Sequence record: OZ035756.1
From: Tequatrovirus LF73P3
Reading direction: 5' to 3' (one strand)
Length of the DNA: 64,000 bases
Part shown: positions 469-60,009 of the stretch, piece after piece
Numbering within the stretch: the first letter of the stretch is position 1
How the letters are laid out: each line of letters starts with the position of its first letter
Translations under genes and position numbers: made by a program
The notes under the pieces: model-generated
Databases searched by the model: none
What the model was told of the DNA's origin: nothing
The model's input: the letters and a program-made list of their open reading frames with translations, nothing else

Positions 469-741
469 TTATTTGTTTGTATACATCTCTAGATATCGAT
501 ATACACCCTCAAAACCCTCGTTGAATTCGTCGATGAGGGTTTTCTTATCTTCTTGAGTTAATTCAGAAACAATTTTACGGAATGAATTCTGATTTAACTT
601 TCTACCTTCATGCGTTACTCCAATCTCATTCAGAAATGCAATAAAATTAGCACGATTCTCAACAATATCTTCTCTGGAAAATTTAATCAAAATAGACGCA
701 ACAGTAATAATTTCACGAACTGTATCAATATTTTTATTCAT
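469..741 (-). CDS. asiA: AsiA anti-sigma70 factor / MotA co-activator
   Basis: 90 aa, MNKNIDTVREIITVASILIKFSRED... matches recalled T4 AsiA in sequence and length. Confidence 0.85.
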   Translation of the reverse strand: MNKNIDTVREIITVASILIKFSREDIVENRANFIAFLNEIGVTHEGRKLNQNSFRKIVSELTQEDKKTLIDEFNEGFEGVYRYLEMYTNK

Positions 742-902
742 TAACTATACCACTCAATTAGTTGACTTTGTTATAATATCATCAGACGCTTGATTTGTAA
801 ACTGGTCTGTGGTATTTTCTTCAAAAATTTTTTCTACGAATTCCTTGAACGACTTACGTTCCTGAGCTACATTATGCTCGATTACTTTTTCAAGATTATG
901 AC

Positions 903-2560: not shown

Positions 2561-3196
2561 TCACAGTTCAGATGCTACGGTGATTACTGCTTCAATGTTT
2601 TCTGCCGAGCGTTTAATGTCAAGATACACATTACCGTTTTTAGCGATTTTACATGACATACCGATATCAGTGAATTTTTGAATATGATGTTCCATCATTT
2701 TGTATCCAAAAATTCGCATATTTCCATTGTTATTAATTTCAAAATTACGAATTCCGTGAGTGCGTTTTTCTAAAATAGCAAGATAGTTACTGCGGTAAGT
2801 TTCAACCTTTTTAAGAACAAATCCATTTTCATCTAAAAGTTTTAGCATAAGGTCTTTATCTTCTTCCATATCGGAAGTAATCTCACGAGCTTTACGAGTT
2901 ACTCGTTTTTTCAGTAGTTCAGGAGCATTTTCCTGTGCATATAAAGTTGCCGCATTTGAAATAATATCCTGAGCTTCACCAGTAATGATTAATCCATCAC
3001 CAGATTTCTCTACCAGACCTTTTTTAATCAATACCCCAATATTACTATTAACTACTGCGTTACCTAAATCTAGATGCACCTCACGAACTTCTGCAGCTGT
3101 AATGAAATCTTTCTTAGCAATGGTAATTAAAATCGCAGCAGTTTTTTCATTCAGAACATCGTTAGAAGCTTTGATGATGTAAGTTACTTTAGACAT
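2561..3196 (-). CDS. motA: MotA middle-transcription activator
   Basis: 211 aa, MSKVTYIIKASNDVLNEKTAAILITIAKKDF...; length and sequence as recalled for T4 MotA. Confidence 0.8.
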   Translation of the reverse strand: MSKVTYIIKASNDVLNEKTAAILITIAKKDFITAAEVREVHLDLGNAVVNSNIGVLIKKGLVEKSGDGLIITGEAQDIISNAATLYAQENAPELLKKRVTRKAREITSDMEEDKDLMLKLLDENGFVLKKVETYRSNYLAILEKRTHGIRNFEINNNGNMRIFGYKMMEHHIQKFTDIGMSCKIAKNGNVYLDIKRSAENIEAVITVASEL

Positions 3197-3301
3197 TTTA
3201 ATCTCCGTTTCAGTTCATTTATTTGATAGGTCTATAGTATCATGTTTAAAGCAGAAGTAAACACTTTTTTGCACTCTTTTTCAAGAGCTCTAATAAAGTA
3301 C

Positions 3302-3529
3302 TTACTTAATGTTAAGATTACGAACTTCGATTTCGTCTTCATGGGCAAAATCAAACTGTTTGAATTCTGTGTCACCTTTAAATTTAAAAATCATTGTGAA
3401 GAAAGTCAGAACACCAGGTTTTTCTTCACGAACTCCACAGATGTCATATTCAATACCATCTACAACCAGTTTGTTAGCAGTCAGAGCATTTTTAGCTTTA
3501 ACGATTTCGTTTTCGATTTTAAATTTCAT
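3302..3529 (-). CDS. hypothetical protein (75 aa), gene 52.1 position
   Basis: ORF directly downstream of an early promoter cassette; SD present. Confidence 0.5.
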   Translation of the reverse strand: MKFKIENEIVKAKNALTANKLVVDGIEYDICGVREEKPGVLTFFTMIFKFKGDTEFKQFDFAHEDEIEVRNLNIK

Positions 3530-3576
3530 TTTTTGTATCTCCGGGTTGTTTGTTTCAGTTCATTTATTTGATAGTT

Positions 3577-3608
3577 GTATAGTACCATAAAGCTTTATGC
3601 TTGTAAAC
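3577..3608 (-). promoter_or_regulatory. Early sigma70-type promoter (-35 GTTTAC, 18-bp spacer with palindrome CATAAAGCTTTATG, extended -10 TGGTACTAT)
   Basis: minus-strand reading ...cGGTTTACaagcataaagctttatggTACTATACaactatcaa; conserved cassette shared with at least 8 other sites. Confidence 0.6.
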
Positions 3609-3626
3609 CGTTTTGTGAAAAAAATT

Positions 3627-3658
3627 TGAAATAAAAAAGGGAGAGCCTCGGCTCTCCC
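3627..3658 (-). terminator. Rho-independent terminator (GGGAGAGCC-GAGG-CTCTCCC hairpin followed by U-run on minus strand)
   Basis: perfect 8-bp GC-rich stem followed by TTTTTTATTT in the minus-strand sense, downstream of gene 52. Confidence 0.7.
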
Positions 3659-3663
3659 TAAAA

Positions 3664-3813
3664 TTACTGCATGACTGTGATAACTGTCATGATAACACGT
3701 TGAATTCCGAACGCAAGAAGACCTCCTGCTACGGCAGGAACAACACCTAAACCCGCCAGTAAAATGCCACCAGATACTAATGCAGCGCTTGTAATACCTA
3801 TGAATGGACTCAT
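3664..3813 (-). CDS. small hydrophobic membrane peptide (49 aa)
   Basis: ATG overlaps gene 52 stop (ATGA), SD GAGGA 7 nt upstream; MSPFIGITSAALVSGGILLAGLGVVPAVAGG...; below track size cut-off. Confidence 0.5.
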   Translation of the reverse strand: MSPFIGITSAALVSGGILLAGLGVVPAVAGGLLAFGIQRVIMTVITVMQ

Positions 3814-6592: not shown

Positions 6593-6692
6593 AGTAAGCG
6601 TTTAATACATCAATCATTAAAACGATTGGGAATATACTCAAAACTACTAGTATTATAACTACATTCCATATAGCTTTAACAATCTTTTTCAT
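6579..6692 (-). CDS. small membrane peptide (37 aa; track ORF trimmed to first ATG after promoter)
   Basis: ATG at 6692 preceded by SD GGAGG within the conserved cassette leader; track start lies upstream of the promoter. Confidence 0.4.
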   Translation of the reverse strand: MKKIVKAIWNVVIILVVLSIFPIVLMIDVLNAYFGFM

Positions 6693-6717
6693 TTTCTGTT
6701 CCTCCGTAGTTGATAGG

Positions 6718-6750
6718 ATAATAATACCACAGAGGAACAGTCTTGTAAAC
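6718..6750 (-). promoter_or_regulatory. Early sigma70-type promoter (GTTTAC -35, TATTAT -10); near-identical copy of the cassette at 58000..58029
   Basis: minus-strand GTTTACaagactgttcctctgtggTATTATTAT. Confidence 0.55.
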
Positions 6751-6935
6751 AACTTTTTTAAAAATATTCGTAATAAATGTGAATACCAATTACTACCGCT
6801 GAAACTTGTGCAACCCACCACGCACAAGCAATAAGTACAGAATTCAAAATTTTCATAATAACCTCATTACAAAAGTAAATGTTAAACAAATTAATGGAAT
6901 ACTAATTAACCAAACAAAACACCACCACAATGAAC

Positions 6936-7208: not shown

Positions 7209-7411
7209 TAATCTGCTAAAAGATCGACGATTGCATCACGAAGACACTTATTCGCAATACGTTTAAGAACAATTTCAGTTTCTGGAGCATTTTGAATAAT
7301 CATTGAATTCAATTCAGCCTCAGCAAACTGAAGTTCTTTAACTAATTCAGCTTTATATTTTCCTTGCCCTTTCTTAGCTTTTGCTCGTTTTAATTCAGCT
7401 GTAGTAAACAT
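7205..7411 (-). CDS. hypothetical protein (about 68 aa; trimmed to ATG downstream of promoter)
   Basis: track ORF 7205..7510 extends through the promoter cassette; first ATG with SD-like GAGA is at 7411. Confidence 0.4.
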   Translation of the reverse strand: MFTTAELKRAKAKKGQGKYKAELVKELQFAEAELNSMIIQNAPETEIVLKRIANKCLRDAIVDLLADY

Positions 7412-7447
7412 TTTATTCTCTAAATCCATATCAGTTGATAGTTGTAT

Positions 7448-7478
7448 AGTACCACAGTCCTTGTGGTATGTAAACTGT
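7448..7478 (-). promoter_or_regulatory. Early sigma70-type promoter cassette (GTTTAC, spacer with CCACA...TGTGG inverted repeat, TGGTACTAT)
   Basis: minus-strand GTTTACataccacaaggactgtggTACTATACaactatcaactgata. Confidence 0.6.
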
Positions 7479-7491
7479 TTTGTGAAATTTT

Positions 7492-8049
7492 TTAAATGGA
7501 AAGATACCATCCGCTGTAGTTGCTTTTTCTTACAACCTTACGAAGGTCTTCTCTATCACCGATGAACTTCGGAGTGTACTGGATGACACCTGGGTGAATT
7601 TCTTTAGTGTTGAATATAATTATACAGTCAGCGACCTGATGATTCAGAATGGGCCCTAGATTTATTCCAGAACCGTATGGATACTCTCCGCTGCATCCTG
7701 TTGTTACAGAAATCCAACGCGAGTCAGTTTGATGTGTCTTAACTTCTACGCGAAGCCCGCAGTATCTTGGATGCGCCAATACATCCCATGCGTATGTATA
7801 CGGGTCATTAACATCCTCTTGGCCTTTGTTAACATACCCGCTTAGCCAATCTGCTACAAAAAACTCTGCGTACACCGCGATACGACATCTTTCAATAACT
7901 TCTGCTTTATCCTGGTTCGGGTTTTGTTTTAAAGAGTATCTTGCTGTATCAGCAATTTTGACCTTCATTTCACTAGTCAAGTCACTGTTCGATAGGGTAA
8001 ATGTCGGAATCTGAAATAGTCTCTGTAAACCCGGATTCGTTTTCTGCAT
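7492..8049 (-). CDS. denB: DenB endonuclease IV (candidate)
   Basis: 185 aa at syntenic position between ndd and rIIB; T4 DenB is 185 aa. Confidence 0.6.
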   Translation of the reverse strand: MQKTNPGLQRLFQIPTFTLSNSDLTSEMKVKIADTARYSLKQNPNQDKAEVIERCRIAVYAEFFVADWLSGYVNKGQEDVNDPYTYAWDVLAHPRYCGLRVEVKTHQTDSRWISVTTGCSGEYPYGSGINLGPILNHQVADCIIIFNTKEIHPGVIQYTPKFIGDREDLRKVVRKSNYSGWYLSI

Positions 8050-11710: not shown

Positions 11711-11914
11711 TTAATTCATATTGCGTTTAATAACTTCAGCAACTTCTAGTAGTTCATCTTTAGTTGCGGTGTCGGATTGAATTTTATCTCTAATATCCTT
11801 AAAGCGGTTTTTAAACTCTTCAGCTTCTCCCATATCGAAAAAGCGTTGGATGATTCTATATTCTCGATGAACTGCTTTATCAAAAAGTTCTAAATTTACT
11901 TTATATGATTTCAT
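11711..11914 (-). CDS. hypothetical protein (67 aa), rIIA.1 position
   Basis: ORF with SD GAGGA downstream of promoter at 11940..11969. Confidence 0.5.
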
Positions 11915-11939
11915 TTCAATATCCTCATTTGCCCAATTA

Positions 11940-11969
11940 ATTATACCACATCCTTGTGGTAAAGTAAAC
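11940..11969 (-). promoter_or_regulatory. Early promoter (GTTTAC, spacer CCACAAGGATGTGG, TGGTATAAT)
   Basis: minus-strand GTTTACtttaccacaaggatgtggTATAAT; -35 overlaps the gene 39 stop codon; near-identical copy at 55035..55064. Confidence 0.6.
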
Positions 11970-13789
11970 TACTGGCTCATCCATTCTTTACGAAGGTCAG
12001 CATTATCCCCCATGAGCATTTCAAAAAGCTCTTTCCAGTTCTCAGGAAGTTTAACAACATCATATACCGGATTTTGAATCATCTCACGATATTCAGATTT
12101 TTCCAAAGAGCCAAGTCCCTTAATATAACGGATGCTATGTTTAGGTAGAGCATCTTTGGCACTCTCATATTCAGCGACTGTATAAAACCATTCTTGTTTT
12201 TTACCGACCTGAGCGATGATTACGGGAGTTTTGACGAAGCGAATTCTTCCTTGTTCAAACAGTTCCGGCCAATTACTAAAAAATCCGAGCAGAGAAGGAT
12301 AAATGCTTCCTAGACCATCGTGGTCAGCATCAGTCATAATAGCAATATTATGATAATTCAAGTTTTCAGCTTTTTCACCAAGAACTAATCCAGTGATTGC
12401 GCAAATATCAAACAGTTCTTTGTTTTTAAGCATATCAGCATATGACATACCCCAACTGTTGAGAACTTTACCACGCAATGGATAACCACCGTGAAGTTCT
12501 TTATCACGAACATCAATAAGATATCCGATAGCAGAATCACCTTCAGTCAAGAAAAGAGTCGTGTCAGCATCTTTACCACAAAGATTCGCTTTAATATGTT
12601 TATGAACCTTAGCTTTAGAAGCCTTTTTAGCTGCTTTAGTTTCTGCTGCTTTTTCTGCCGCCAATTTACGAGCCAAGGCAGCTTCAATAATTGGCATTAA
12701 AATTGCTTCATTGTTTAAAATAGCGCGTGAAATCTTTTTAGCATCAAGCTGAATATGACTACGAATTTCACCAAATGGAGAAGTCAAACGCTCTTTAGTT
12801 TGAGAATCAAATCGCATGTTTTTCATATCACGAACAAACATAACGATAGTCAAGCATTCTTTAACACGTGCTTTAGTTACATCAATTTTGAACTTGCGTT
12901 TAATTTGTGGAATAAGGTCTTCACAAATATCATCCATAACGCAGTCAATGTGATGGCCGCCATTCTTAGTATGAATGTTATTGACATATGTTAATTGACG
13001 AAAACCATCTGGTGAACGACCGACTGCAATAGAACAGTTTTCCTGTTCTTGAACGATAGCATGCTCATCATATTGGCGTGCGTATTTCTTAAAATTACCC
13101 TGAACCTTTTTACCGTTAAAGGTAAATTGAATATCAGGATAAACTACTGCAAGTGTCTGGAGACGATCCAGTGTAATGTCAAGATAAACTTGAGATAGCT
13201 CATTAGTTTCAAATGACATAAAATCAGGAATGAAAGTAACACGAGTTCCTTTCCATTTTCCAGGAATAGTTTCCCATGATTTATTTTCCATGCCATTTGA
13301 ACAACGAACTACAATATTATTTTGACCGTCGCCAGTTTCACCAACAAACATTACAGAAAAAATGTTAGTTAAACTAGAACCAACACCGTTCATACCACCA
13401 GTGACGCGTTCTTTATCATCACCGAAGTTACCACCTGCTTTTGGAATAGTCCAGGCAGCAACAGGACCAGGAATTTCTTCGCCGGTAGGTGTTTTAACCA
13501 TCGCTTGTGGAATACCGCGACCGTTATCTTCAACTGTTACTTGATTGTTTTTGATAGTAACATTAATTTTATTTGCGAATTTAAACTTAGTACGAATACC
13601 TTCATCTACTGAGTTATCGATAATTTCATCAATAAGCTTAACAAGACCAGGTACATACTGAACACTTTCCCATTTACCAAACAGAAAGCGCTCATGCATT
13701 TCATTAGCGGAAGAGCCAATGTACATGCCGCTACGCTTTTTGATATGTTCAATATCGCTCAGAATTTTAATTTCATTCTTAATCATCAC
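11969..13789 (-). CDS. 39: DNA topoisomerase II large (ATPase) subunit, single fused gene 39 (covers the region split off as gene 60 in T4)
   Basis: 606 aa continuous ORF, GyrB-like; T4 gp39 is about 516 aa plus separate gp60; T2-type fused form is about 605 aa. Confidence 0.9.
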   Translation of the reverse strand: MMIKNEIKILSDIEHIKKRSGMYIGSSANEMHERFLFGKWESVQYVPGLVKLIDEIIDNSVDEGIRTKFKFANKINVTIKNNQVTVEDNGRGIPQAMVKTPTGEEIPGPVAAWTIPKAGGNFGDDKERVTGGMNGVGSSLTNIFSVMFVGETGDGQNNIVVRCSNGMENKSWETIPGKWKGTRVTFIPDFMSFETNELSQVYLDITLDRLQTLAVVYPDIQFTFNGKKVQGNFKKYARQYDEHAIVQEQENCSIAVGRSPDGFRQLTYVNNIHTKNGGHHIDCVMDDICEDLIPQIKRKFKIDVTKARVKECLTIVMFVRDMKNMRFDSQTKERLTSPFGEIRSHIQLDAKKISRAILNNEAILMPIIEAALARKLAAEKAAETKAAKKASKAKVHKHIKANLCGKDADTTLFLTEGDSAIGYLIDVRDKELHGGYPLRGKVLNSWGMSYADMLKNKELFDICAITGLVLGEKAENLNYHNIAIMTDADHDGLGSIYPSLLGFFSNWPELFEQGRIRFVKTPVIIAQVGKKQEWFYTVAEYESAKDALPKHSIRYIKGLGSLEKSEYREMIQNPVYDVVKLPENWKELFEMLMGDNADLRKEWMSQ

Positions 13790-15474: not shown

Positions 15475-15972
15475 TTATGCATAGCGAGCTTTGCTATAGT
15501 GTTTAATCCAACTTTCAGGAATGACTTTGTATGTTCCTAAAAATACCGCGTTGTACAACTTAACGCCATCTTCTACCCATTGATCGGTAATGTATGCACA
15601 CATAGCGCGAGTACGATGTTTTTGAACAACCCCTTCCTCATCTTCAGTAAATTCAAATTCATAAGGAGCGACGAACTTAATAGCCTGACCGAGTTTCCAC
15701 TTAAAGTCTACACCTACATGCGAAGTATCAATCGTTTCAATTCCTTTAGCAGGAACAGCTTTCAAAAACGCAGATTCAAGAAATTTCGCACGAACATAAC
15801 CAAACTGAGGTTTAGACTTTCCATCTTTAGGAATGATACGCACTTTTACTTCAGAATCTTCATCTTTAACACCGTGTTTAAGCTGAATGCTTACAATTTC
15901 GACCAATTTTCCTGCTGCTTTAGAACGGGATTTATCAGATACACGAGCAATTTCACCAATATTAATAATCAT
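15475..15972 (-). CDS. MotB-like protein (165 aa), paralogue of next gene
   Basis: shares C-terminal motif (ITDQWVEDGVKLYNAVF... vs VTDQWIEDGVELLNVVH...) with 16049..16591. Confidence 0.5.
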   Translation of the reverse strand: MIINIGEIARVSDKSRSKAAGKLVEIVSIQLKHGVKDEDSEVKVRIIPKDGKSKPQFGYVRAKFLESAFLKAVPAKGIETIDTSHVGVDFKWKLGQAIKFVAPYEFEFTEDEEGVVQKHRTRAMCAYITDQWVEDGVKLYNAVFLGTYKVIPESWIKHYSKARYA

Positions 15973-16048
15973 AGTTATCTCTCACTTGTTAAAAAGATTT
16001 TATACTCCACAGGACCATTATACTCTGGTCCCAAGAGTTTGTAAACTA

Positions 16049-16591
16049 TTAATTCAAAATAGCTACCACTGCACTACGAGGTACTACACTAAAATCACCT
16101 GCATGAACAACGTTCAGAAGTTCAACGCCATCTTCAATCCACTGGTCTGTTACCCAACCGCAGACCGAAATAAATGGGGTCTTAATAGCTACAGCACGAG
16201 TTAGAAGGTCAGTAGGATCGCATTCTTGGAAGAGGATAAGCTCTGCTTCAAAGACTATAGTTTTAATTACTTCATCATTATCTAAGCGTTGTGCTCGAAT
16301 CACGTAAGCTTTATTCTTATCGTGCCAGTTACTTTTTGAAAAACTTTTAACCACAAACTCGCCTTCACCAAAAACACTAGTCAATGCTTTATAACCCAAA
16401 CTTAGTTCAGTAGTTTTAATTTCAGTTTCAACCAGTTTGTAGATTTTGCCAATTTCAATAGTCCGAGCAGTCATAGTAGGTTCCTTAATTTCCAATGGTT
16501 TAACAGGGCATACATAAGTGCTTACAACATCAAAATCAATCAGTTTAGCTACCGGATTTGGAGTGTATTCAGGATTATAATTAAATTTCAT
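16049..16591 (-). CDS. MotB-like paralogue (180 aa)
   Basis: paralogous to 15475..15972. Confidence 0.5.
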   Translation of the reverse strand: MKFNYNPEYTPNPVAKLIDFDVVSTYVCPVKPLEIKEPTMTARTIEIGKIYKLVETEIKTTELSLGYKALTSVFGEGEFVVKSFSKSNWHDKNKAYVIRAQRLDNDEVIKTIVFEAELILFQECDPTDLLTRAVAIKTPFISVCGWVTDQWIEDGVELLNVVHAGDFSVVPRSAVVAILN

Positions 16592-16593: not shown

Positions 16594-17094
16594 TTATCTC
16601 ATTTCAATAAAATCTACAAGTTCAGCATGGGATTTACGGAACATTACTTGGTGTCCGCCAATGATAACTTCATCTTCAGGAACTTCGTATACAGCAAGAT
16701 AAAATCCTTTAGAAGATAATTCTTCACGTTCTTCTCGTGTGAACCATCTCATCATATCATATTCACTAGCGAAAGCAAAATGATAAAGAGCTATAAACCA
16801 TCCTGGAATATGATATTCTACTCCAACATAATCTTTCTTGAACTTAGTATTAATTACTATATTAGCGTTTTTAACTAATAGTTTATCTTCGTATGGTAAA
16901 GGAATTCTTTTATTATTATCGCTATGATGCATAAAATTAGGTCTACTATAACCTACACGTAATAGCCACTCTTCGCTCCATGAATCTATTATACTCCTGT
17001 ACGGCGTTATTTGAACACAAAGATTTCGACGTATTGTTATAGCATCTTCATAATCAAGAATACTAAACGATGATTCAACACGATAAATTTTCAT
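16594..17094 (-). CDS. hypothetical protein (about 166 aa; start trimmed to ATG with SD GAGGA)
   Basis: track start 17133 lies upstream of the promoter at 17122..17151. Confidence 0.45.
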   Translation of the reverse strand: MKIYRVESSFSILDYEDAITIRRNLCVQITPYRSIIDSWSEEWLLRVGYSRPNFMHHSDNNKRIPLPYEDKLLVKNANIVINTKFKKDYVGVEYHIPGWFIALYHFAFASEYDMMRWFTREEREELSSKGFYLAVYEVPEDEVIIGGHQVMFRKSHAELVDFIEMR

Positions 17095-17121
17095 TTTATT
17101 ATCCTCAGTAGCTATGGTGTT

Positions 17122-17151
17122 ATAATACCACAACTAACCGAGGAAGTAAAC
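17122..17151 (-). promoter_or_regulatory. Early promoter (GTTTAC, TGGTATTAT)
   Basis: minus-strand GTTTACttcctcggttagttgtggTATTATAA. Confidence 0.55.
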
Positions 17152-17157
17152 AACTTT

Positions 17158-17841
17158 TTATCGTTTTGTTGGAAGAGACAGAGGATCGCACTCTTCCTCT
17201 GACGGAGCATCTTCAAGACCCATAGCATATCGCAAAGCATACTTCATCATCAGGATGTCTTTCGCACAATCATGAATAGAATCATGCGCAACGAATCCGT
17301 CTAAAGTTCCCTTTGGAAGAGGACATGTGGTCATATCACGAACAAGCAGAAGTGCTTCAATTCTGGTACGAATATCACGCTGATTCCAGAATTTACATGG
17401 TTCTAACTTAAATGTATCAAGCTCATTCTCAGAAACGCCGTTAAAACGTTGAATATCGCGAATGAGATCAACTAAAATTGGAAAATCAAACGACATTCCA
17501 CGGCACCAGCCTTGAGATTTCCAAGGATCGATGTTATGTGCATTGATGTAATCATTAAATTTTGCAATACCATCGATAGTGCTTACATCTTCATCCGATG
17601 GTGCAATATTTTTTCGAGCTTCAGGAGATTGATTTTTCCACCATTCGATAGTGCTTTTAGTAAAAAGACGATGTCCTTTTTGGCTTTTTAAATCAAACTT
17701 GATTTTAATGCCGCGTGAAACTAATTCATCAAATGTTTCAACTACTTCTGGATTAGGGTCAAAGGCAATAACAGCTAAGTCAATAACAGCTGCCTTTTCA
17801 CCGCTTCCCATTGTTTCAAAATCTATAATAAAATCAAACAT
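17158..17841 (-). CDS. dexA: DexA exonuclease A (DnaQ-like 3'-5' exonuclease)
   Basis: 227 aa from ATG at 17841 (MFDFIIDFETMGSG... Exo I motif); track start is an upstream GTG. Confidence 0.8.
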   Translation of the reverse strand: MFDFIIDFETMGSGEKAAVIDLAVIAFDPNPEVVETFDELVSRGIKIKFDLKSQKGHRLFTKSTIEWWKNQSPEARKNIAPSDEDVSTIDGIAKFNDYINAHNIDPWKSQGWCRGMSFDFPILVDLIRDIQRFNGVSENELDTFKLEPCKFWNQRDIRTRIEALLLVRDMTTCPLPKGTLDGFVAHDSIHDCAKDILMMKYALRYAMGLEDAPSEEECDPLSLPTKR

Positions 17842-19961: not shown

Positions 19962-20708
19962 TTATCCTCGGATAAGTTTAAAAATTGAACAATTTAGCGG
20001 GTATCCTCTTTTCAGTTTAAGTTTATCAATAAAAGACAAATTTTGATACCGCTCTACACCTTGAATAATTTTATCACACATATCATATTGCATTTCTGCT
20101 TCTGACAACCTTTTCACAGTTTTCCAATCCGAGCCTTTAAGAAGAACGTTCAATTTAACAACTTCAGCGCCTTCTGCTATACGAGAACCATCAATACGAG
20201 CTTTGAGTGCTACAATCGTTAGCTTAATGTCTGAGGTTTGTTTTGATTTAGAAAGCTGAGAAATGTGTTCAATTCGGTTTTCACGTTTTTTCTGTATAGC
20301 TTTAATTTGATTATAAGTCTTTTTGATTTTAGCCCATTTCTTTTCATCTAAATTTAGTTTATGAACTTTTTTCGCAGATGAACGACCAATTCGCAAAGCA
20401 AATAAATCACGCTTTTCAATCAACTCTTCTAAAGTATAATCAGAACGAAATGTATTGTACTTTTTCTTTACTGCAATAACATTCCCTTTAATGTATCCAA
20501 CGTTATTATCAAAACGTTCTAATGATAATTTCTCTCCTTCAATACGATTATCAAAAGGTTCTCCCGAGTAAGCGCAAACTTTCTGATCTAAAATGTTCTT
20601 AATGTAATTGAAGTCTAAGTTAAAATCTTTAGAACGTCTTTTAGCAGATGCCTGAGTGTGCTCTAGACGACGTGTAATTTTACGAATTTGATTTTTAGAC
20701 AGTTTCAT
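19962..20708 (-). CDS. Srd-like protein (248 aa; candidate)
   Basis: size and position match T4 srd between dda and modA; basic, no catalytic motif confirmed. Confidence 0.45.
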   Translation of the reverse strand: MKLSKNQIRKITRRLEHTQASAKRRSKDFNLDFNYIKNILDQKVCAYSGEPFDNRIEGEKLSLERFDNNVGYIKGNVIAVKKKYNTFRSDYTLEELIEKRDLFALRIGRSSAKKVHKLNLDEKKWAKIKKTYNQIKAIQKKRENRIEHISQLSKSKQTSDIKLTIVALKARIDGSRIAEGAEVVKLNVLLKGSDWKTVKRLSEAEMQYDMCDKIIQGVERYQNLSFIDKLKLKRGYPLNCSIFKLIRG

Positions 20709-20738
20709 ATTTTTCTCACGGACGGGTTAACTACTTAT

Positions 20739-20768
20739 ACTATAACATTTTTACTTCAGTTTGTAAAC
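20739..20768 (-). promoter_or_regulatory. Early promoter (GTTTAC, TGTTATAGT)
   Basis: minus-strand GTTTACaaactgaagtaaaaatgTTATAGT. Confidence 0.5.
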
Positions 20769-20824
20769 AACTTTATGAAAAATGCTTTAAAACTTTCGTG
20801 GTATAATGAATCTAAGTCCTTCCA

Positions 20825-21427
20825 TTATAGATTAAATCCTTCAAAATCAAGAGTATAGATAGTGTATGTTGAATACTTTTTATACTCGTATCTATCCGCA
20901 ATTCTAAATACACTTCCAGCTGGTATCATTACTTCTTGTTCATCTGAAACTAATTCCATATTACGATAACGATGGCTATCCGGAAATTTAAAACTCGGGC
21001 TATATTCTTTACAACGTAAAGCTTTTATAGCATACTCCTGGAAATTAAACACCATAGGAGCTTTGAATTCAAAAATAACTTGTGTGTTGTATTCTAATCC
21101 AGAAGCAAAATGTAGAGCTATATTTTTATCATATGAAGCTGATACTACTTTATCAAATGTAATAATATCAATTCCTTGATTTAACACCTGTTTAGTCTCA
21201 ACTGGAACACCTCTCCAAAGAGGTTTATCGTTTGGAACCAAACGAGATTTGATTATTTCATTTAACCAAGAATGATCGTCTGGCTTATTAGTAATACAAT
21301 GAATTAAAAGTTCAATTTCAGATAAATTAAATCCTTCGGAAAGTAATTCTTCACGAATAGAAGCACGCACCGATGCATCCATTGATTTGATTTTAAAATC
21401 TTTTAATTGCATTGCTGAATATTTCAT
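20825..21427 (-). CDS. modA: ModA ADP-ribosyltransferase
   Basis: 200 aa; R-S-E motifs (WRG, SAS, EQEVMIP). Confidence 0.8.
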   Translation of the reverse strand: MKYSAMQLKDFKIKSMDASVRASIREELLSEGFNLSEIELLIHCITNKPDDHSWLNEIIKSRLVPNDKPLWRGVPVETKQVLNQGIDIITFDKVVSASYDKNIALHFASGLEYNTQVIFEFKAPMVFNFQEYAIKALRCKEYSPSFKFPDSHRYRNMELVSDEQEVMIPAGSVFRIADRYEYKKYSTYTIYTLDFEGFNL

Positions 21428-22047
21428 TCAACTACCTCAATATCATACACTTTAAATGTTCCAAATGAATCGTGTAATTTTTCTTTTGAAATAGAAGTTA
21501 TTTTATACTTTCCAATTGGAATCATCCATTCTTGTTCACGCACAATCATCATTAAGTTATCAGTACGTTCTGAATCTAATCCATCAGTATCTTCATATGT
21601 ATACTTAAACTCAGTATTAGGAGAAGAAAGTATAATATCGCTGATATGGTCAGAATAATTAAAAGCTTTATCAGTTTTTAAGCGAAATATTATTTCAGTG
21701 GAATATTCAACATAAGAAAAACCACATGCTGTGTGCAAACTAGTAGTAAATGAATCTACTCTGTTCGTTGAAAACACTTCTCCGATTTGTAAATCTTTAA
21801 TGAGTTCTTTTGTCGATTTTGATATACCACGATATAGCTGATAAGGCGATTTAGTTAAATGCTTTTTAGCGATTTTATTCAACTGCTGATGAAGAGCTTC
21901 ATTCTTTTTGGCTTCCATACATTGCCAAAGAATTGACTGTTCAAAGTCAGTAAATTTTTCACAGACCTTTTTATACATATCATATTGAAAATCGACACTT
22001 TCAGCTTTTATAGATAACTGTTCAACATCTGCAAGATTAATAATCAT
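21424..22047 (-). CDS. modB: ModB ADP-ribosyltransferase
   Basis: 207 aa; R-S-E motifs (YRG, STN, EQEWMIP). Confidence 0.8.
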   Translation of the reverse strand: MIINLADVEQLSIKAESVDFQYDMYKKVCEKFTDFEQSILWQCMEAKKNEALHQQLNKIAKKHLTKSPYQLYRGISKSTKELIKDLQIGEVFSTNRVDSFTTSLHTACGFSYVEYSTEIIFRLKTDKAFNYSDHISDIILSSPNTEFKYTYEDTDGLDSERTDNLMMIVREQEWMIPIGKYKITSISKEKLHDSFGTFKVYDIEVVE

Positions 22048-22073
22048 GATAGCCTCCGTATACTTCAGAAACT

Positions 22074-22103
22074 ATCATATCATTGTTAGGAAGGAAAGTA
22101 AAC
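22074..22103 (-). promoter_or_regulatory. Early promoter (GTTTAC, TGATATGAT)
   Basis: minus-strand aaaaGTTGTTTACtttccttcctaacaatgaTATGAT. Confidence 0.5.
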
Positions 22104-22114
22104 AACTTTTTGAA

Positions 22115-22297
22115 TTATTTTGCCCAGGGAGCCCAAGGCGGAGGGTCAAGATGGTATGAAGCTAGTTCTTCTAGAAGAGCATCTGGGGCTTCAATTCCAT
22201 AATTCTGTAATACTATACGGTACTCTTTCTTATAATCACTAGAATCATTCTGGATATTCGTAGAATGATTATCTTCTAACATCTCAAATAAATCCAT
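22115..22297 (-). CDS. hypothetical protein (60 aa)
   Basis: six-frame ORF. Confidence 0.4.
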   Translation of the reverse strand: MDLFEMLEDNHSTNIQNDSSDYKKEYRIVLQNYGIEAPDALLEELASYHLDPPPWAPWAK

Positions 22298-23940: not shown

Positions 23941-24152
23941 TACAAAAAGCCTCTTTGAAATTCGACTCTTTGAAATCCACCCCAGTCAGTGTATCGCATT
24001 TCAGCATTGAACTCGACTGAACCATCTGCATGCATCATGAATGAATGCGTGACGATATCACAATCCCAGCTTTTCATACCCCATTTATCAGAGATAGCTT
24101 TATCAAGAACCTTCTGGAGGTCTTCATTTGGTTTAATCCAACGATTTAACAT
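23940..24152 (-). CDS. hypothetical protein (70 aa)
   Basis: six-frame ORF downstream of a cassette promoter. Confidence 0.4.
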   Translation of the reverse strand: MLNRWIKPNEDLQKVLDKAISDKWGMKSWDCDIVTHSFMMHADGSVEFNAEMRYTDWGGFQRVEFQRGFL

Positions 24153-24178
24153 AGTGCTCTCCTCTATAAGATAATTTT

Positions 24179-24208
24179 ATTATACCATACTCATTTTGGA
24201 AAGTAAAC
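24179..24208 (-). promoter_or_regulatory. Early promoter (GTTTAC, TGGTATAAT)
   Basis: minus-strand GTTTACtttccaaaatgagtatggTATAAT. Confidence 0.55.
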
Positions 24209-24216
24209 CGGTAAAA

Positions 24217-24243
24217 TGAAAAAAGGACTCCCGGAGGAGTCCT
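24217..24243 (-). terminator. Rho-independent terminator after soc (AGGACTCC-UCCG-GGAGUCCU plus U-run)
   Basis: 8-bp stem, tetraloop, followed by UUUUUUCAUUUU on minus strand. Confidence 0.65.
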
Positions 24244-24248
24244 TGAAT

Positions 24249-24494
24249 TTATTCACCAGTTACTTTCCACAAATCTTCGTTTGCAGTAATCCATTCAGTA
24301 CGTTGATTTTCTTCATATACTGTAGAATATGCTGCTTTTTCTGAAGGGAATATCTGATAATGAGCGCCAGAAATTTTGTGAACGTCAGAATAAAGAGGGA
24401 AAGCTACAGAAATTTCCTTTCCTTCAATTTTCTTATTTCCATCTAATTTTTGCTCAAATGTTTTAATATTAACATAACCGCGAGTACTAGCCAT
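24249..24494 (-). CDS. soc: Soc small outer capsid protein
   Basis: 81 aa, MASTRGYVNIKTFEQKLDGNKKIEGKEISVAFPLYSDVHKISGAHYQ... as recalled for T4 Soc. Confidence 0.85.
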   Translation of the reverse strand: MASTRGYVNIKTFEQKLDGNKKIEGKEISVAFPLYSDVHKISGAHYQIFPSEKAAYSTVYEENQRTEWITANEDLWKVTGE

Positions 24495-27526: not shown

Positions 27527-27819
27527 TATTCACCTACCACTTCAGCGATGATATTTTTATTATTAAAGTTTTTATCGCAATACAGAACATAATTATACTG
27601 CATTACACCACCAGACTTAAGCTGTTTTTGTACTTCAGCTTTCATTTCAGGACGGTCACGCTCAACAATATTCATAATATCTGCTTCAATTTGAGTTTCA
27701 ACTTCAGTCTGATCTGCAGTCATAGACCATTCACACAAATCTTTGTCATAACCCGCCATAGCAGGCTGAGCAGCACAAGAAGATAAAGCAAAAATTGTAG
27801 CAAAGATAAATTTTTTCAT
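27526..27819 (-). CDS. sp: Spackle-like periplasmic protein (superinfection exclusion / lysozyme inhibitor)
   Basis: 97 aa with signal peptide MKKFIFATIFALSSCAAQPAMA; T4 Sp is 97 aa. Confidence 0.65.
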   Translation of the reverse strand: MKKFIFATIFALSSCAAQPAMAGYDKDLCEWSMTADQTEVETQIEADIMNIVERDRPEMKAEVQKQLKSGGVMQYNYVLYCDKNFNNKNIIAEVVGE

Positions 27820-27879
27820 GATAATCTCCTCAGTAGTTTATGTTTATATAGTATCTCAATTTCCAATAAAAGTAAACAG

Positions 27880-28179
27880 CTATTTTAAAACTTCTGCATA
27901 ATCACATGTTACAAACTGTTTCTCTAACTTGACGATTTTACGAAAGTATCTTTTGCATTGGCGAATCTGCCGCTTTGTAGGGCGCACAGCAAACTTAATA
28001 AATTCCACTCGACCAAATGGAGAGCTTTCTTCTGCTGGAATATCTAATACCAATTCCCACGTATCTGCAATAAGTGCTTTGAATTGAGTATTTTTCCTGA
28101 CATTATACGGAGTAGGTTTAAATAAAACGATATGCATATTATCCTCGGCAATCCACTTCACATACCTTCTTGTCATCAA
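27880..28179 (-). CDS. hypothetical protein (99 aa), 61.4 position
   Basis: six-frame ORF. Confidence 0.45.
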   Translation of the reverse strand: MMTRRYVKWIAEDNMHIVLFKPTPYNVRKNTQFKALIADTWELVLDIPAEESSPFGRVEFIKFAVRPTKRQIRQCKRYFRKIVKLEKQFVTCDYAEVLK

Positions 28180-28321
28180 TGAAAGCTTTAACTAGTGCTT
28201 TATTAACTTCAGCATATTGAGTAGTAGTCCATTGAACGTCATCTTTCATCATTGTGATCTCTTTAGTAAACATGCTTTCGTTCTTAAACCACCCCATAAA
28301 AACTACCTTTACCAATTCCAT
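28139..28321 (-). CDS. dmd: Dmd antitoxin (discriminator of mRNA degradation)
   Basis: 60 aa, MELVKVVFMGWFKNESMFTKEITMMKDDVQW... Confidence 0.8.
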   Translation of the reverse strand: MELVKVVFMGWFKNESMFTKEITMMKDDVQWTTTQYAEVNKALVKAFIDDKKVCEVDCRG

Positions 28322-28350
28322 AACAATCTCCTCATTTAACCAACAAGACT

Positions 28351-28380
28351 ACTATACCATAGTCTTGTCGGCTTGTAAAC
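28351..28380 (-). promoter_or_regulatory. Early promoter (GTTTAC, TATAGT) with 8-bp inverted repeat CAAGACTA/TAGTCTTG flanking the -10
   Basis: minus-strand GTTTACaagccgacaagactatggTATAGTagtcttg. Confidence 0.5.
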
Positions 28381-29807
28381 TAAAATTTTAATTCATTTGC
28401 CAAAGCATCTAACTGAGCTCGAGCGGATTCGTTTCTTTGATAGCGATTCTGTTCAGCTTGAATCTGCTGTGAACCTGCTACTTCGTTCACTTCGGTTGGA
28501 GTAGAATCTTGTTCAATTTCTACCCATTTCTGATTTCCTTTTTGAACACCCATCAAAAACTTATTCCATTTATTCTTATCACCATATCGTGATTTGATTT
28601 GCTTAATGAGTTGTTGTTCAGCAGCTGCTAGCTCCTCGGTTTCAATGACCGCAAGCATAAAATCGGCTGTTGCTGGAAGCCCAGCAGATTCTGCAATATC
28701 GCTCATGTTAACATCAGAAGAATCCCAAGCTTGTTTACCAACCTGCGCTGCAGTCCAAAGAACAGTTTCGGTTTCAACAGCCAGAGCACGCAATTCCTCT
28801 GCGATAGCTTTAACAGTTGTGTAACTATTTTCTGAATAAACTCTAATGCGGCAAGATTTACAAATACCCAGATAGTCAACAATAATGATTGTTGGAACAA
28901 AATTCTTCTTGAGCTTCAATTCATTCAAAAGAGAACGAAATGTATTAGCGTCTGCTCCACCGGTAGGATATTGTTTAACGATTAAACGACCGAGAGTAGA
29001 TTTCTCACGCCATTTTTCCATTTTTCCTTTATACTCAGCGTAAGAAATATGCCCATCATCAATGTCATCAAGAGAAACATCAAGCATATTAGCGTCAATA
29101 CGCTTAGCACAAACTTCTTCTGCCATTTCCATGGAAATGTAAAGAACATTATGTCCGAGCTGCAAATAATCTGCTGCCAATGAACACAGACCTAATGACT
29201 TACCGACGTTAACACCAGCCATTAAAACGTTCAGTGTTCCAGTTTCAGCTCCGCCTTTAGTAATTTTATTTAGAATTTTGAGTTTAAATGGAACCTTACG
29301 AGCTTTATTCATATAAGATAGCCAACGTGCTTCGTAGTCATCCATCCAATCATGACCAACGTAACTATCAAATGAAATTGATAATGCTTGGCGCATGATG
29401 TCAGGAATAGCACCTACATCTGGCATTTTCTTATTTCGTTTTTCTGGAGGAAGCTCAGCATTAGTTTGAATTTCAATTATTTTAGACGTAGCATTAAACA
29501 TCGCCCTTTGCTGAACATATTTTTCTGTTTCTTTTACTAACCAGCTGTGGTCTTCCGGAGAATCGGCTAGTTTTGAAATAAGTGTTTTTACACCAGAATA
29601 TTCTGTTTCAGTAAATGAACTATTTTCTAATGCAACATTTAACGCATTAATAGATGGAACGCTATGGTATTCATTAACATGAGATTTAATTAATTTGAAT
29701 GTATTTTTAGCTGGACCACTTTCAAAATATTCTGAATCCATATATGGCCAAACTTTTGAAAAATAAGCTTGATCAAATATGAGATGAGAAAGAATAATTT
29801 CTACCAC
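28380..29807 (-). CDS. 41: gp41 replicative DNA helicase (DnaB family)
   Basis: 475 aa; GTG start preceded by SD AAGGAG; Walker A GVNVGKS. Confidence 0.9.
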   Translation of the reverse strand: MVEIILSHLIFDQAYFSKVWPYMDSEYFESGPAKNTFKLIKSHVNEYHSVPSINALNVALENSSFTETEYSGVKTLISKLADSPEDHSWLVKETEKYVQQRAMFNATSKIIEIQTNAELPPEKRNKKMPDVGAIPDIMRQALSISFDSYVGHDWMDDYEARWLSYMNKARKVPFKLKILNKITKGGAETGTLNVLMAGVNVGKSLGLCSLAADYLQLGHNVLYISMEMAEEVCAKRIDANMLDVSLDDIDDGHISYAEYKGKMEKWREKSTLGRLIVKQYPTGGADANTFRSLLNELKLKKNFVPTIIIVDYLGICKSCRIRVYSENSYTTVKAIAEELRALAVETETVLWTAAQVGKQAWDSSDVNMSDIAESAGLPATADFMLAVIETEELAAAEQQLIKQIKSRYGDKNKWNKFLMGVQKGNQKWVEIEQDSTPTEVNEVAGSQQIQAEQNRYQRNESARAQLDALANELKF

Positions 29808-33795: not shown

Positions 33796-34053
33796 TCAAA
33801 TACAAGTAGTAATTACTCCAGTAGTGCTTATACAGGTATTACCTAATTGAACACCAAGCGTTCCATTAGTATTCATATGAAGATTATCATCAATTTTTGT
33901 TGATACTTTACCATTCATGTGAATAACAGTATTAGATTCAATCACATTCTGAGTGTCATTTTCAATATCAATAAATGGAACAGATGCTAATGCAACTAGA
34001 ACAGCTGCTAATGCAACTAAACACGCTGCTAAACAACCATAAACAATTTTCAT
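33796..34053 (-). CDS. hypothetical secreted/membrane protein (85 aa; trimmed to cassette ATG)
   Basis: ATG at 34053 preceded by SD GGAG within the conserved cassette leader. Confidence 0.45.
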   Translation of the reverse strand: MKIVYGCLAACLVALAAVLVALASVPFIDIENDTQNVIESNTVIHMNGKVSTKIDDNLHMNTNGTLGVQLGNTCISTTGVITTCI

Positions 34054-34087
34054 TTCATTCTCCAAATCCGTATCAGTTGATAGTTGT

Positions 34088-34118
34088 ATAGTACCATGGA
34101 AGAACAGGGATGTAAACA
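34088..34118 (-). promoter_or_regulatory. Early promoter cassette (GTTTAC, TGGTACTAT)
   Basis: minus-strand GTTTACatccctgttcttccatggTACTATACaactatcaactgatacgg. Confidence 0.6.
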
Positions 34119-34195
34119 GTTTTGTGAAAAAATTTTTAATGAATTTACAGGACCTAGAATCATCTATTTTTCCTAAGTATAGATTTATATTACTT

Positions 34196-47499: not shown

Positions 47500-47715
47500 T
47501 TAAATTTTCCAGTTACCATTTTCATCAATAAATTTAATCCAGTCATTTACTGACCACTTGGTCGTATCGCCCTTTGGAGCAACATTTAAAGTGTATAATC
47601 CCTGTTTAAAAAGCATGCGTTTGATATTCATATTTTCCTCAGCTGTAACGATAGCACTCGTTTGATTTACGCTTAGCAACTCGTTGAGAAGTATTATAAT
47701 CAAAATCATCGTCAA
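47500..47715 (-). CDS. hypothetical protein (71 aa)
   Basis: six-frame ORF. Confidence 0.4.
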   Translation of the reverse strand: MTMILIIILLNELLSVNQTSAIVTAEENMNIKRMLFKQGLYTLNVAPKGDTTKWSVNDWIKFIDENGNWKI

Positions 47716-47977
47716 TGTAAACTGATTTTTTCAACTTTCTTACTTCACCACGTAATTGGCGATTTAGCTCATCTTTAACTTCTGAATCAATGCCTTTCAT
47801 TCTACGCCATTTATCAGAGCGAAAAATGTTTTCGACCATATCTTTATGACTTACACCATCAGGAGCTTTACGCTTTCCGAAATAGTCATAATCACGAACT
47901 TTCAAGTCTTTACGACGATACGTTTTACCCATGGAGTTTAATTTCCTTAGCAACTGAACTAAATACAGCACGGTCAC
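47639..47977 (-). CDS. hypothetical basic protein (112 aa; start uncertain)
   Basis: six-frame ORF, overlaps neighbour. Confidence 0.35.
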   Translation of the reverse strand: MTVLYLVQLLRKLNSMGKTYRRKDLKVRDYDYFGKRKAPDGVSHKDMVENIFRSDKWRRMKGIDSEVKDELNRQLRGEVRKLKKSVYIDDDFDYNTSQRVAKRKSNECYRYS

Positions 47978-48107
47978 AAATCATCTGTTTATGTAACTTG
48001 AGTATAAGATAATAAACTTCAAAACCGTTTACATAAGTAACACGAACAACATTACCATTAATAAAATAATATTGTCCCTTTTTAATTTCTTTATCAACCA
48101 CAACCAT
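47925..48107 (-). CDS. hypothetical protein (60 aa)
   Basis: downstream of promoter at 48138..48167. Confidence 0.4.
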   Translation of the reverse strand: MVVVDKEIKKGQYYFINGNVVRVTYVNGFEVYYLILKLHKQMICDRAVFSSVAKEIKLHG

Positions 48108-48137
48108 ATCAAATCCTCAAAGGCAATTCATGTGTTA

Positions 48138-48167
48138 ATAATACCACAGTTTGAACTTCTTGTAAAC
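48138..48167 (-). promoter_or_regulatory. Early promoter (GTTTAC, TATTAT)
   Basis: minus-strand ttGTTTACaagaagttcaaactgtggTATTATtaac. Confidence 0.5.
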
Positions 48168-48265
48168 AACTTTGTGAAAATTATTTTAGGGAATGATAAG
48201 AAGGGAACGATAGCTTAGAATGGTAATATACAGAATGTGAGAAAGAAAGGCCCAGAGGGCCCGTC

Positions 48266-52643: not shown

Positions 52644-52748
52644 TTATGTCATTTATCGTTGGTTCATTATATACTGTTTCTTCATCAGTGTAAACCGGTT
52701 CTTCCGGCTCTGGCTCTACAGTTTCCCATCTAGCCGCCCACCAAGGTT

Positions 52749-55006: not shown

Positions 55007-55034
55007 ATTAATCTCCTCAGTAGAAAGTAAGAAC

Positions 55035-55064
55035 ATTATACCACATCCTTGTGGCAAAGTAAAC
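55035..55064 (-). promoter_or_regulatory. Early promoter (GTTTAC, CCACAAGGATGTGG spacer, TGGTATAAT)
   Basis: near-identical to promoter at 11940..11969. Confidence 0.6.
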
Positions 55065-57971: not shown

Positions 57972-57999
57972 TTTCTGTTCCTCCGTAGTTGATAGTTGT

Positions 58000-58029: not shown

Positions 58030-58031
58030 CA

Positions 58032-59405: not shown

Positions 59406-59474
59406 TTTATTCTCCAATTTCACATTTGTTTTGATAGGGTAATAGTATCACACTACTACCCTACTGTAAACAAT

Positions 59475-60000: not shown

Positions 60001-60009
60001 TGCGTTAGT

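Follow-up and report, generated by a model that had tools for sequence, protein, structure and literature searches.

Repeated promoter and leader modules in the early region of Tequatrovirus LF73P3: probable T4-type early promoters that occasionally serve as recombination sites

We identified a repeated module at 23 sites in a 64,000-nucleotide stretch of the Tequatrovirus LF73P3 genome (record OZ035756.1; hereafter the window). To judge from their sequence, the copies are very probably T4-type immediate-early promoters (Pe) with their 5' leaders, four of them with a preceding terminator, that act as occasional recombination sites. The repeat is real and lies well beyond chance, and crossover between copies is shown by junction anatomy for three accessory modules. 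Recombination is a by-product of the likeness between promoters rather than what the copies mainly do, and most indels in the window arise by routes other than the cassettes, namely homing endonucleases or microhomology. The module is already known from the promoter-early stem-loops (PeSLs) of T4/PST and RB49/phi1 and is found here in another T4 relative. Only two points are mildly new: the share of indels due to the cassettes, and the evidence that promoter cores have been exchanged between distant loci.

Genomic context

Along its whole length the window matches many T4-like coliphages of the genus Tequatrovirus, among them Killian, UGKSEcP1, L14 and PYps14T, at 95-97% identity. It comprises the early-gene region from asiA to mobD and is colinear with T4: positions 1-9511 correspond to T4 160410-168903 (t/asiA through rIIB), and positions 9512-64000 to T4 1-58604 (rIIA to mobD). 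Nearly all of the genes, as well as the promoter and leader module, are on the minus strand. Six relatives were compared with the window: T2 and T6 in the 52-64 kb interval only, and T4, Killian, PYps14T and UGKSEcP1 along all 64 kb. No family was matched in an Rfam scan of the whole window, and an exact-match cassette search in IMG/VR yielded only 7 stretches and was uninformative.

A repeated early promoter

The core pattern GTTTAC-N18-TANNAT has 19 exact matches in the window, all on the minus strand, compared with 0.32 +/- 0.55 in dinucleotide shuffles. When a 17-nt gap and TAnnGT are also allowed the number rises to 23 sites, all on the gene strand. For TGGTACTATACAACTATCAAC, the extended -10 and start region, there are six matches with up to three mismatches (0 expected), and the UP tract TTTATTTCAAAATTTTTTCACAAA is matched twice (3635 and 60599; 0 expected), with a third copy at 59949 that differs by a 1-nt indel. 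A scan of positions 1-20000 with a generic sigma-70 consensus yielded 73 sites where 80.4 were expected and therefore had no power here, and because this shows no enrichment the signal is specific to the phage pattern. A repeat search recovered families of 77 nt (6 copies), 67 nt (5 copies) and 46 nt. The 6750 and 58029 copies of the 67-nt family are 91% identical, and those of the 46-nt family (7409/34051/59883) are 83-93% identical.

The first-pass annotation had described a conserved recurring module at ten positions. All ten hold the described sequence when read on the minus strand, and both the excess of core matches and the 46-77 nt of identity within sub-families bear out the recurrence. 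Its list of copies was incomplete, with about 13 missed (-35 elements at 802, 3262, 16046, 17151, 20768, 22103, 27877, 28380, 47722, 48167, 52695, 59471 and 63364). Copies are referred to below by a single coordinate, such as 3608, where the -35 spans 3608-3603. The 23 probable promoters with their leaders, all on the minus strand, and a degenerate copy are as follows.

739..862, minus strand: early promoter and leader of asiA; -35 at 802, inside the asiA.1 coding region
3194..3322, minus strand: promoter and leader of motA; -35 at 3262, 17-nt spacer, no terminator
3527..3668, minus strand: full composite cassette; -35 GTTTAC at 3608-3603, with terminator, UP tract, spacer AAGCATAAAGCTTTATGG, TACTAT, leader and the ORF75 ATG
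6690..6810, minus strand: promoter and leader of ndd.4 (6750 copy); paralogue of the 58029 copy (91% over 67 nt)
7409..7535, minus strand: promoter and full conserved leader (7475 copy); spacer with the CCACA..TGTGG repeat
11912..12029, minus strand: early promoter of rIIA.1; spacer TTTACCACAAGGATGTGG, 97% identical to the 55064 copy
near 15410-15486: degenerate cassette copy, missed by the first reading
15970..16106, minus strand: early promoter of motB; -35 at 16046
17092..17211, minus strand: early promoter of motB.2; -35 at 17151, spacer-leader complementarity z = -5.3
20706..20828, minus strand: early promoter of srd; -35 at 20768
22045..22163, minus strand: early promoter of modB/modA; -35 at 22103
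24150..24268, minus strand: composite cassette that drives mrh.2; -35 at 24208
27817..27937, minus strand: early promoter of sp; -35 at 27877
28319..28440, minus strand: early promoter of dmd; -35 at 28380, inverted repeat around the -10
34051..34177, minus strand: promoter and full conserved leader (34117 copy); gene 43 terminator hairpin (34205-34221) 88 nt upstream
47629..47782, minus strand: pattern match inside the 55.5 coding region; -35 at 47722, weaker candidate
48105..48227, minus strand: early promoter of 55.6; -35 at 48167, hairpin 80 nt upstream
52623..52755, minus strand: pattern match inside 49.1, upstream of pin; -35 at 52695, weak candidate
55003..55124, minus strand: early promoter that drives nrdC.4 in relatives (55064 copy); here nrdC.4 is deleted and the cassette fused to nrdC.3
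57969..58089, minus strand: promoter and leader of nrdC.8 (58029 copy)
59403..59531, minus strand: promoter and leader of nrdC.10; -35 at 59471, leader ending in GGAGAATAAAATGAAAACT
59882..60009, minus strand: full composite cassette (59949 copy) with terminator, UP tract, -35, spacer AACCAAAGCATACTGTGG and full conserved leader
60493..60632, minus strand: full composite cassette (60572 copy) with terminator, UP tract, -35, TATAAT and a longer leader
63304..63424, minus strand: early promoter of a mobD.2-like ORF; -35 at 63364

The consensus of the 19 exact copies is aAaaAatTTTcA.AAA.t.GTTTACAt..c......a.TgTGGTATtATA.aacTATcAA. Its UP portion, aAaaAatTTTcA.AAA, lies upstream of the -35, with an information content that exceeds background from -20 to -3, counted from the start of the -35. 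The UP tract is clearest at 3608, 59949, 60572, 34117, 7475 and 48167. TGTGG is conserved just upstream of the -10. The CCACA...TGTGG inverted repeat, which the spacer was initially said to hold often, is present in 3 of the 23 copies. An ATG is found 55-91 nt from the -35 in every one of the 23, and the leader and Shine-Dalgarno (SD) sequence are conserved within sub-families. The matches at 47722, 52695 and 802 fall in coding sequence, the first two having no clear UP tract.

The motif is also found at orthologous positions in T4, Killian, PYps14T and UGKSEcP1. The sites map upstream of T4 asiA, motA, ndd.4, ndd.6, rIIA.1, motB, motB.2, srd, modB and mrh.2, and further sites upstream of sp, dmd, imm.1, 55.6, pin and nrdC.4, nrdC.8 and nrdC.10. 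The 7475 cassette, which precedes ndd.6 in T4, drives an extra 68-amino-acid ORF here, and the 34117 cassette, which precedes imm.1 in T4, drives an extra 85-amino-acid ORF (33796-34053). T4 early promoters have reportedly been compiled by Liebig and Rueger in 1989, Wilkens and Rueger in 1996 and Miller et al. in 2003. They are of the 'uber' UP/-35/TGn/-10 type with extra consensus regions (Hinton, PMC2988021), and Nolan et al. place GTTTAC at -36 to -31, with an A-rich tract that resembles a UP element at -40 to -44 (PMC1524935). The copies in the window share with the T4 early promoters the UP/GTTTAC/TGn/-10 architecture and the extra conserved positions, and no difference was found; they are orthologues matched by position and sequence only. 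The repeated module reads as a T4 early promoter (UP, -35, TGn, -10) plus a leader.

Predicted terminator hairpins upstream of the promoters

A hairpin followed by a T-run is found 16-31 nt upstream of the -35 in 4 of the 23 promoters (3608, 24208, 59949 and 60572). The predicted stability of these tight hairpins is -11 to -15.5 kcal/mol; each precedes five or six T residues, and the T-run leads straight into the UP tract. They are predicted to close the motA.1/52, soc, ORF161 and nrdC.11 units, and their sequences differ from one another. The hairpin at 3659-3638 ranked first in terminator prediction.

3638-3658, minus strand: terminator hairpin GGGAGAGCCGAGGCTCTCCC and T6, predicted to end the 52/motA.1 transcript
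24224-24242, minus strand: soc terminator hairpin GGACTCCTCCGGGAGTCC and T6, 16 nt upstream of the 24208 -35
59980-59999, minus strand: terminator GGGGACCTCTAAGGTCCCC and T6, part of the 59949 cassette
60601-60619, minus strand: nrdC.11 terminator GGGAGCCTTCGGGCTCCC and T5, part of the 60572 cassette

Two further promoters (34117 and 48167) have a loose upstream hairpin at 80-88 nt. The GC hairpin and U-run that had been taken as part of the module is therefore present in tight form at four copies and loosely at these two, but the rest are without it.

Leaders and candidate RegB sites

The full 35-nt leader, AACTATCAACTGATACGGATTTGGAGAATAAAATG, is present in three copies (7475, 34117 and 59949) and partially in about five more. 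The conserved leader of the first-pass annotation is thus genuine, but it does not occur in all copies. The 3262 copy of motA and the 3608 copy have the leader ACTATCAAATAAATGAACTGAAAC in common. GGAG occurs within 13 nt of the ATG in 13 of the 23 cassette-driven genes compared with 7 of 103 others (Fisher p=3e-7).

The consensus of a strong RegB/S1 cleavage site is GG*AGRAYARAA (Uzan and Miller 2010, PMC3014915), and in the most conserved sub-family the 3' end of the leader, GGAGAATAAAATG, is an exact match to it. Two leaders (start codons 59405 and near 15377) contain GGAGAATAAAA, an exact fit to GGAGRAYARAA, and a site of this type with one mismatch is found at seven further leaders. With up to one mismatch allowed the consensus has 18 matches, of which 9 abut the start codons of cassette genes. 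These predicted sites resemble the RegB/S1 sites in the translation initiation regions of early genes in having a GGAG SD followed by an A-rich tract, and we infer that the cassette leaders carry candidate RegB targets.

The features of a complete cassette suggest how it would operate. The GC hairpin and U-run would stop the upstream early transcript, as predicted here, and the A/T-tract UP element would serve the alpha-CTDs of RNA polymerase, followed by GTTTAC, the 18-nt gap, TGn/TGTGG and TAnnAT. The UP/-35/TGn/-10 combination would capture host sigma-70 polymerase at once, as is established for T4 and as sequence identity and orthologous position suggest here. A leader of 25-45 nt with a GGAG or GAGG SD would give immediate translation, and the RegB nuclease would later inactivate the message at GGAGAATAAAATG.

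Three accessory modules bracketed by cassettes

The cassettes were initially said to bracket the accessory genes. This holds for three modules (ORF75; ORF87 and ORF49; ORF161), but conserved T4 early genes are what most cassettes precede.

3302..3529, minus strand: module 1, ORF75 (phrog_10955), between the 3608 and 3262 cassettes; absent from T4
59475..59884, minus strand: module 2, ORF49 and ORF87 (DUF4031), between the 59949 and 59471 cassettes; absent from T4, T2 and T6
60010..60495, minus strand: module 3, ORF161, between the 60572 and 59949 cassettes

ORF161 is a ModA/ModB-like ADP-ribosyltransferase, a paralogue 28-29% identical to ModA/ModB. It is absent from T4, T6, Killian, PYps14T, UGKSEcP1 and L14 and is present in 43 phage records, T2 included.

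At each of the three modules the relatives without it have a single cassette. For ORF75 (event 3242/3565) T4 has one cassette, the flanking repeat is 23 nt, and the crossover lies in the -10/leader region. For ORF49 and ORF87 (event 59417/59876) T4, T2 and T6 have one hybrid cassette, with the crossover in GGAGAATAAAATGAAAACT and a 21-nt repeat at the SD-ATG. For ORF161 (event 59983/60567) the single hybrid cassette of five relatives joins the nrdC.11 hairpin to the downstream promoter through the shared UP tract, and the crossover falls within the 39-41 nt of the shared UP tract. The crossover zone therefore varies by event: the UP tract at 59983/60567, the SD-ATG at 59417/59876 and the -10/leader at 3242/3565. 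Each zone is the longest stretch of identity, as general homologous recombination predicts.

Modules 2 and 3 also vary in their distribution. T4 and T6 have neither, T2 has module 3 only, Killian, PYps14T, UGKSEcP1 and L14 have module 2 only, and the window has both. The occurrence of all four combinations of presence and absence indicates modular reassortment at the cassettes.

Recombination in T4 needs less than 50 bp of homology (cited in PMC2839356). The efficient homologous recombination of T4 would occasionally cross over between copies because they have stretches of 20-40 nt of identity in common. Such crossovers would delete, insert and reassort small gene modules between copies and would exchange promoter cores across distant loci.

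Exchange of spacers between loci

At most loci a locus-specific spacer is kept across five genomes. The 3608 and 59949 loci depart from this pattern. At 3608 the window has the spacer AAGCATAAAGCTTTATGG where four relatives have AACCAAAGCATACTGTGG, and at 59949 the arrangement is reversed, with AACCAAAGCATACTGTGG in the window and AAGCATAAAGCTTTATGG in the relatives. In L14 and VIPECOOM01, two of the records with the window's arrangement at 3608, both loci hold this one spacer, a sign of ectopic conversion. The 18-nt spacers are outside the consensus constraint, and they have moved between loci that lie tens of kilobases from each other. Leaders at one locus also vary between genomes, as at 7475 and 59949 in PYps14T.

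The arrangement at 3608 is common to about 23 records at 95% identity or more, and an assembly artefact is an unlikely source of the swap at this locus because these records are independent. The spacer that the window has at 59949 was not seen at that locus in the eight genomes examined, and there an assembly artefact is a possible explanation.

A broader reading of these exchanges, which we offer tentatively and would not yet favor, is that the promoter cores (the spacer with its -35 and -10) are mobile and that the early promoters evolve in concert by frequent ectopic conversion, regardless of the genes that they drive. In the same reading a hairpin between spacer and SD at 6750/58029, and perhaps at 17151, would tie translation to the promoter of the gene itself.

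Spacer-leader pairing and translation

A further possibility is that the functional core of the cassette is its inverted repeats, located within and around the spacer. Read-through RNA would fold and block translation unless the gene's own promoter is used, and the cassette would be a translational insulator. The 6750 and 58029 copies fit this proposal best. At 6750 the spacer arm CTGTTCCTCTGTGG is complementary to the SD-containing leader CTACGGAGGAACAG, and in both copies a 14-bp helix pairs the spacer with the SD, with a predicted duplex stability of -26 kcal/mol and a z of about -8. The predicted accessibility of the SD is 0.00 in read-through RNA compared with about 0.8 in the primary transcript; at 58029 (nrdC.8) the hairpin is thus predicted to hide the SD fully. 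The differences between T4 and the window at locus 6750 retain pairing through G-U wobble, whereas at locus 58029 two mismatches in T4, located where the helix ends, are left uncompensated. The 17151 copy also shows spacer-leader complementarity (z = -5.3).

As a general feature, however, sequestration of the SD was rejected. A first test gave 0.37 against 0.58 (p=0.002), but the difference vanished in a swap control in which each leader was joined to the upstream regions of other cassettes: the SD was masked alike, at 0.40 compared with 0.37 for its own upstream region (p=0.62). Complementarity between spacer and leader is significant in only 5 of the 23 copies and strong only at 6750/58029 and 17151. 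Masking of the SD, a feature of predicted folds, is retained for these copies only, and we regard an insulator as the core function of the cassettes as rather unlikely.

Indels relative to other phages

Indels were called from chained blastn blocks of the window against each relative, which were then merged. This gave 41 indel or replacement events against the six relatives. A cassette interval was defined as the sequence bounded by the ATG and by a point 60 nt upstream of the -35; together the intervals cover 4.6% of the window. At least one boundary falls in a cassette in 7 of the 41 events, where random placement predicts 3.15 +/- 1.73 (P=0.038). Enrichment at cassettes was not supported against a null of gene junctions, for which 10.1 +/- 2.7 events are expected (P=0.92), so that cassettes are not preferred breakpoints relative to other gene junctions. 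The copies have extended identity, but only a minority of them coincide with breakpoints, which leaves the role in genome shuffling put forward by the first-pass annotation half standing.

Seven events have a flanking direct repeat of at least 17 nt, and four of these are at cassettes. Inspection at the level of residues identified 3 of the 41 as clean cassette-by-cassette events with flanking repeats of 21-41 nt, these being the three modules described above. Events 6968/7409 and 33785/34046 have 8-9 nt of start-codon homology, AAATGAAAAT, with one partner only in a cassette. The second of these is an eighth event that narrowly misses a cassette, as it ends 5 nt beyond the start codon at 34051-34053 and 10 nt outside the cassette interval. 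In event 7202/7433 only the right boundary lies in the 7475 cassette, and in the replacement 52749/53039 the left boundary meets the weak 52695 candidate; both are without a flanking repeat. Among the remaining events at least nine are homing-endonuclease, intron, dam or glucosyltransferase differences.

Two candidates were rejected. The 54987/55003 deletion, counted among the seven that touch a cassette, is not a cassette event, since in the alignment the paralogues nrdC.3 and nrdC.4 have crossed over at their 5' ends. A 324-bp insertion at 48566-48889 that appeared window-specific is a common polymorphism in 419 records and has no link to a cassette.

It might be supposed that the copies are promoters only, similar to one another through selection for strength and the ancestry of duplicated upstream regions, with no special role in plasticity. 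Most copies do lie ahead of conserved early genes, with a spacer particular to the locus that is kept in five genomes, the lack of enrichment over other gene junctions (P=0.92) is as this account would have it, and swaps of homing-endonuclease or modification genes make up at least 9 of the 41 events. We nevertheless consider it improbable. Three indels have both junctions in cassettes, direct repeats of 21-41 nt and hybrid cassettes in relatives, four of the seven long-repeat indels lie in the 4.6% of the sequence that is cassette, and non-consensus spacers travel between distant loci.

Relationship to known PeSLs

The name PeSL (promoter-early stem-loop) comes from Krisch's group, and the element was defined in RB49/phi1 by Arbiol et al. 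(2010, Genome Biol Evol 2:140; PMC2839356). In T4/PST the PeSLs consist of an AT-rich tract, TTTACW-N17-TAYWAT, and an SD and ATG at the 3' end, with a stem-loop just upstream (Comeau, Arbiol and Krisch 2014, Genome Biol Evol 6:1611; PMC4122927). They are found preferentially in hyperplastic regions and near indels, including the ndd.4/.5 exchange, and the role claimed for them is 'contributory' and not exclusive (PMC4122927). The first-pass annotation had likened its terminator, early promoter and leader to a PeSL, and the match to this published description confirms the identity. The phage group (T-even/Tequatrovirus), the anatomy, the loci, including the ndd.4/.5 region, and the proposed role in indels are all the same. 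There is no essential difference, and the window adds counts (4 of 23 copies with tight stem-loops, 3 of 41 clean events) and the exchange of spacer cores.

The RB49/phi1 PeSLs likewise have a terminator stem-loop, a strong early promoter, an SD and an ATG and flank ORFans, and their crossovers are in the same zones, the AT-rich region and between the -10 and the ATG (PMC2839356). However, the RB49 elements have near-perfect TTGACA/TATAAT and GGGG..CCCC stems, whereas the copies in the window have a GTTTAC -35 and variable stems. Termination at the RB49 stem-loops was demonstrated experimentally, and mini-circles were detected (PMC2839356).

Arbiol et al. raised as a speculation that a stem-loop might be a site for site-specific recombination (PMC2839356). 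A dedicated system of this kind, with a protein that recognizes the stem-loop as at integron attC sites, could draw on the conserved GC hairpins beside some copies, the PeSL mini-circles of RB49 (PMC2839356) and the resemblance of the modules to gene cassettes, each with its own promoter and terminator, but it is highly improbable here: the crossover zones vary by event and each is at the longest stretch of identity, a tight upstream hairpin is found in only 4 of 23 copies with differing sequences, no recombinase gene is linked to the cassettes, and T4 recombination already works with less than 50 bp of homology (cited in PMC2839356).

Implications for T4-type phages

Current understanding of T4 biology is unchanged by these findings. 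Cassette-mediated recombination is real, yet it accounts for roughly 3 to 8 of the 41 indels, and homing endonucleases and short start-codon homologies explain more of them than the cassettes do. The regulatory layout of a T4-type early region can be recovered from sequence alone; for LF73P3 this gives a usable map, with 23 probable immediate-early promoters and four junctions of terminator and promoter.

Spacer exchange and a degenerate cassette

Two early promoter cassettes lying 56 kb apart on the minus strand (3579-3608 and 59920-59949) show a reciprocal swap of their 18-nt promoter spacers when compared with T4, Killian, PYps14T and UGKSEcP1. The spacer state of the window at 3579-3608 is common to approximately 23 phages in the database. 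Its state at 59920-59949 was found in none of the eight genomes checked, and phages L14 and VIPECOOM01 carry one and the same spacer at both loci.

A degenerate copy of the cassette was also identified upstream of cef.

15374-15490, minus strand: degenerate cassette copy, with a -35 element of TATACA instead of GTTTAC

The TATACA element is followed by TGGTACTATATCAATATCAAC and then by an exact GGAGAATAAAATG. In PYps14T, 59 bp are missing directly downstream of this copy, and the flanking repeat is 16 nt long.

Accessory genes and indels

The accessory module ORF161, which is equipped with a predicted promoter and a predicted terminator of its own, codes for a protein that matches phrog_832.

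60010-60495, minus strand: Mod-like gene (ORF161), product of 161 aa

The product is 28-29% identical to the ADP-ribosyltransferases ModA and ModB encoded in the same window, and by sequence ORF161 is a third Mod-like gene. T4 lacks it; among 50,697 phage records only 43 carry it, T2 and HY01 being two of these.

The large subunit of topoisomerase II is encoded by a single ORF, without the 1.1-kb insertion that in T4 carries 60.1, mobA and the bypass segment of gene 60 and separates gp39 from gp60.

11969-13789, minus strand: large topoisomerase II subunit, unbroken ORF of 606 aa

The junction at 25474-25495 is without the T4 dam methyltransferase gene (~900 bp); its PYps14T counterpart holds a dam methyltransferase and a neighbouring gene (~1450 bp). 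The T4 genes segF, segA/beta-gt, mobB, mobC, I-TevII and mobD are each missing or replaced.

At 17831-17887, the window lacks a segment, the dexA.1 gene, that adds 187 bp in Killian, PYps14T and UGKSEcP1 and 228 bp in T4. The extra segment is bordered in these relatives by a 57-nt direct repeat, the longest flanking repeat among the indels of the window, and this indel is unrelated to the promoter cassettes. Between 55.8 and nrdH, a 324-bp segment (48566-48889) encoding an ORF of ~100 aa is missing in T4, Killian, PYps14T and UGKSEcP1; it occurs in 419 records of the database, and the copies in phages KNP1, KNP5 and EC121 are 100% identical to it.

A separate hairpin family

A second repeat family in the window consists of short intergenic hairpins that read GGGCUUCGGCCC on the transcribed strand and are capped by a UUCG tetraloop.

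8329-8346, 8558-8575, 13831-13861, 36973-37010, 38918-38955, 43628-43665 and 47267-47304: intergenic copies of the hairpin

Because most of these hairpins do not adjoin an early promoter, the promoters and the terminator-like hairpins are separable modules.
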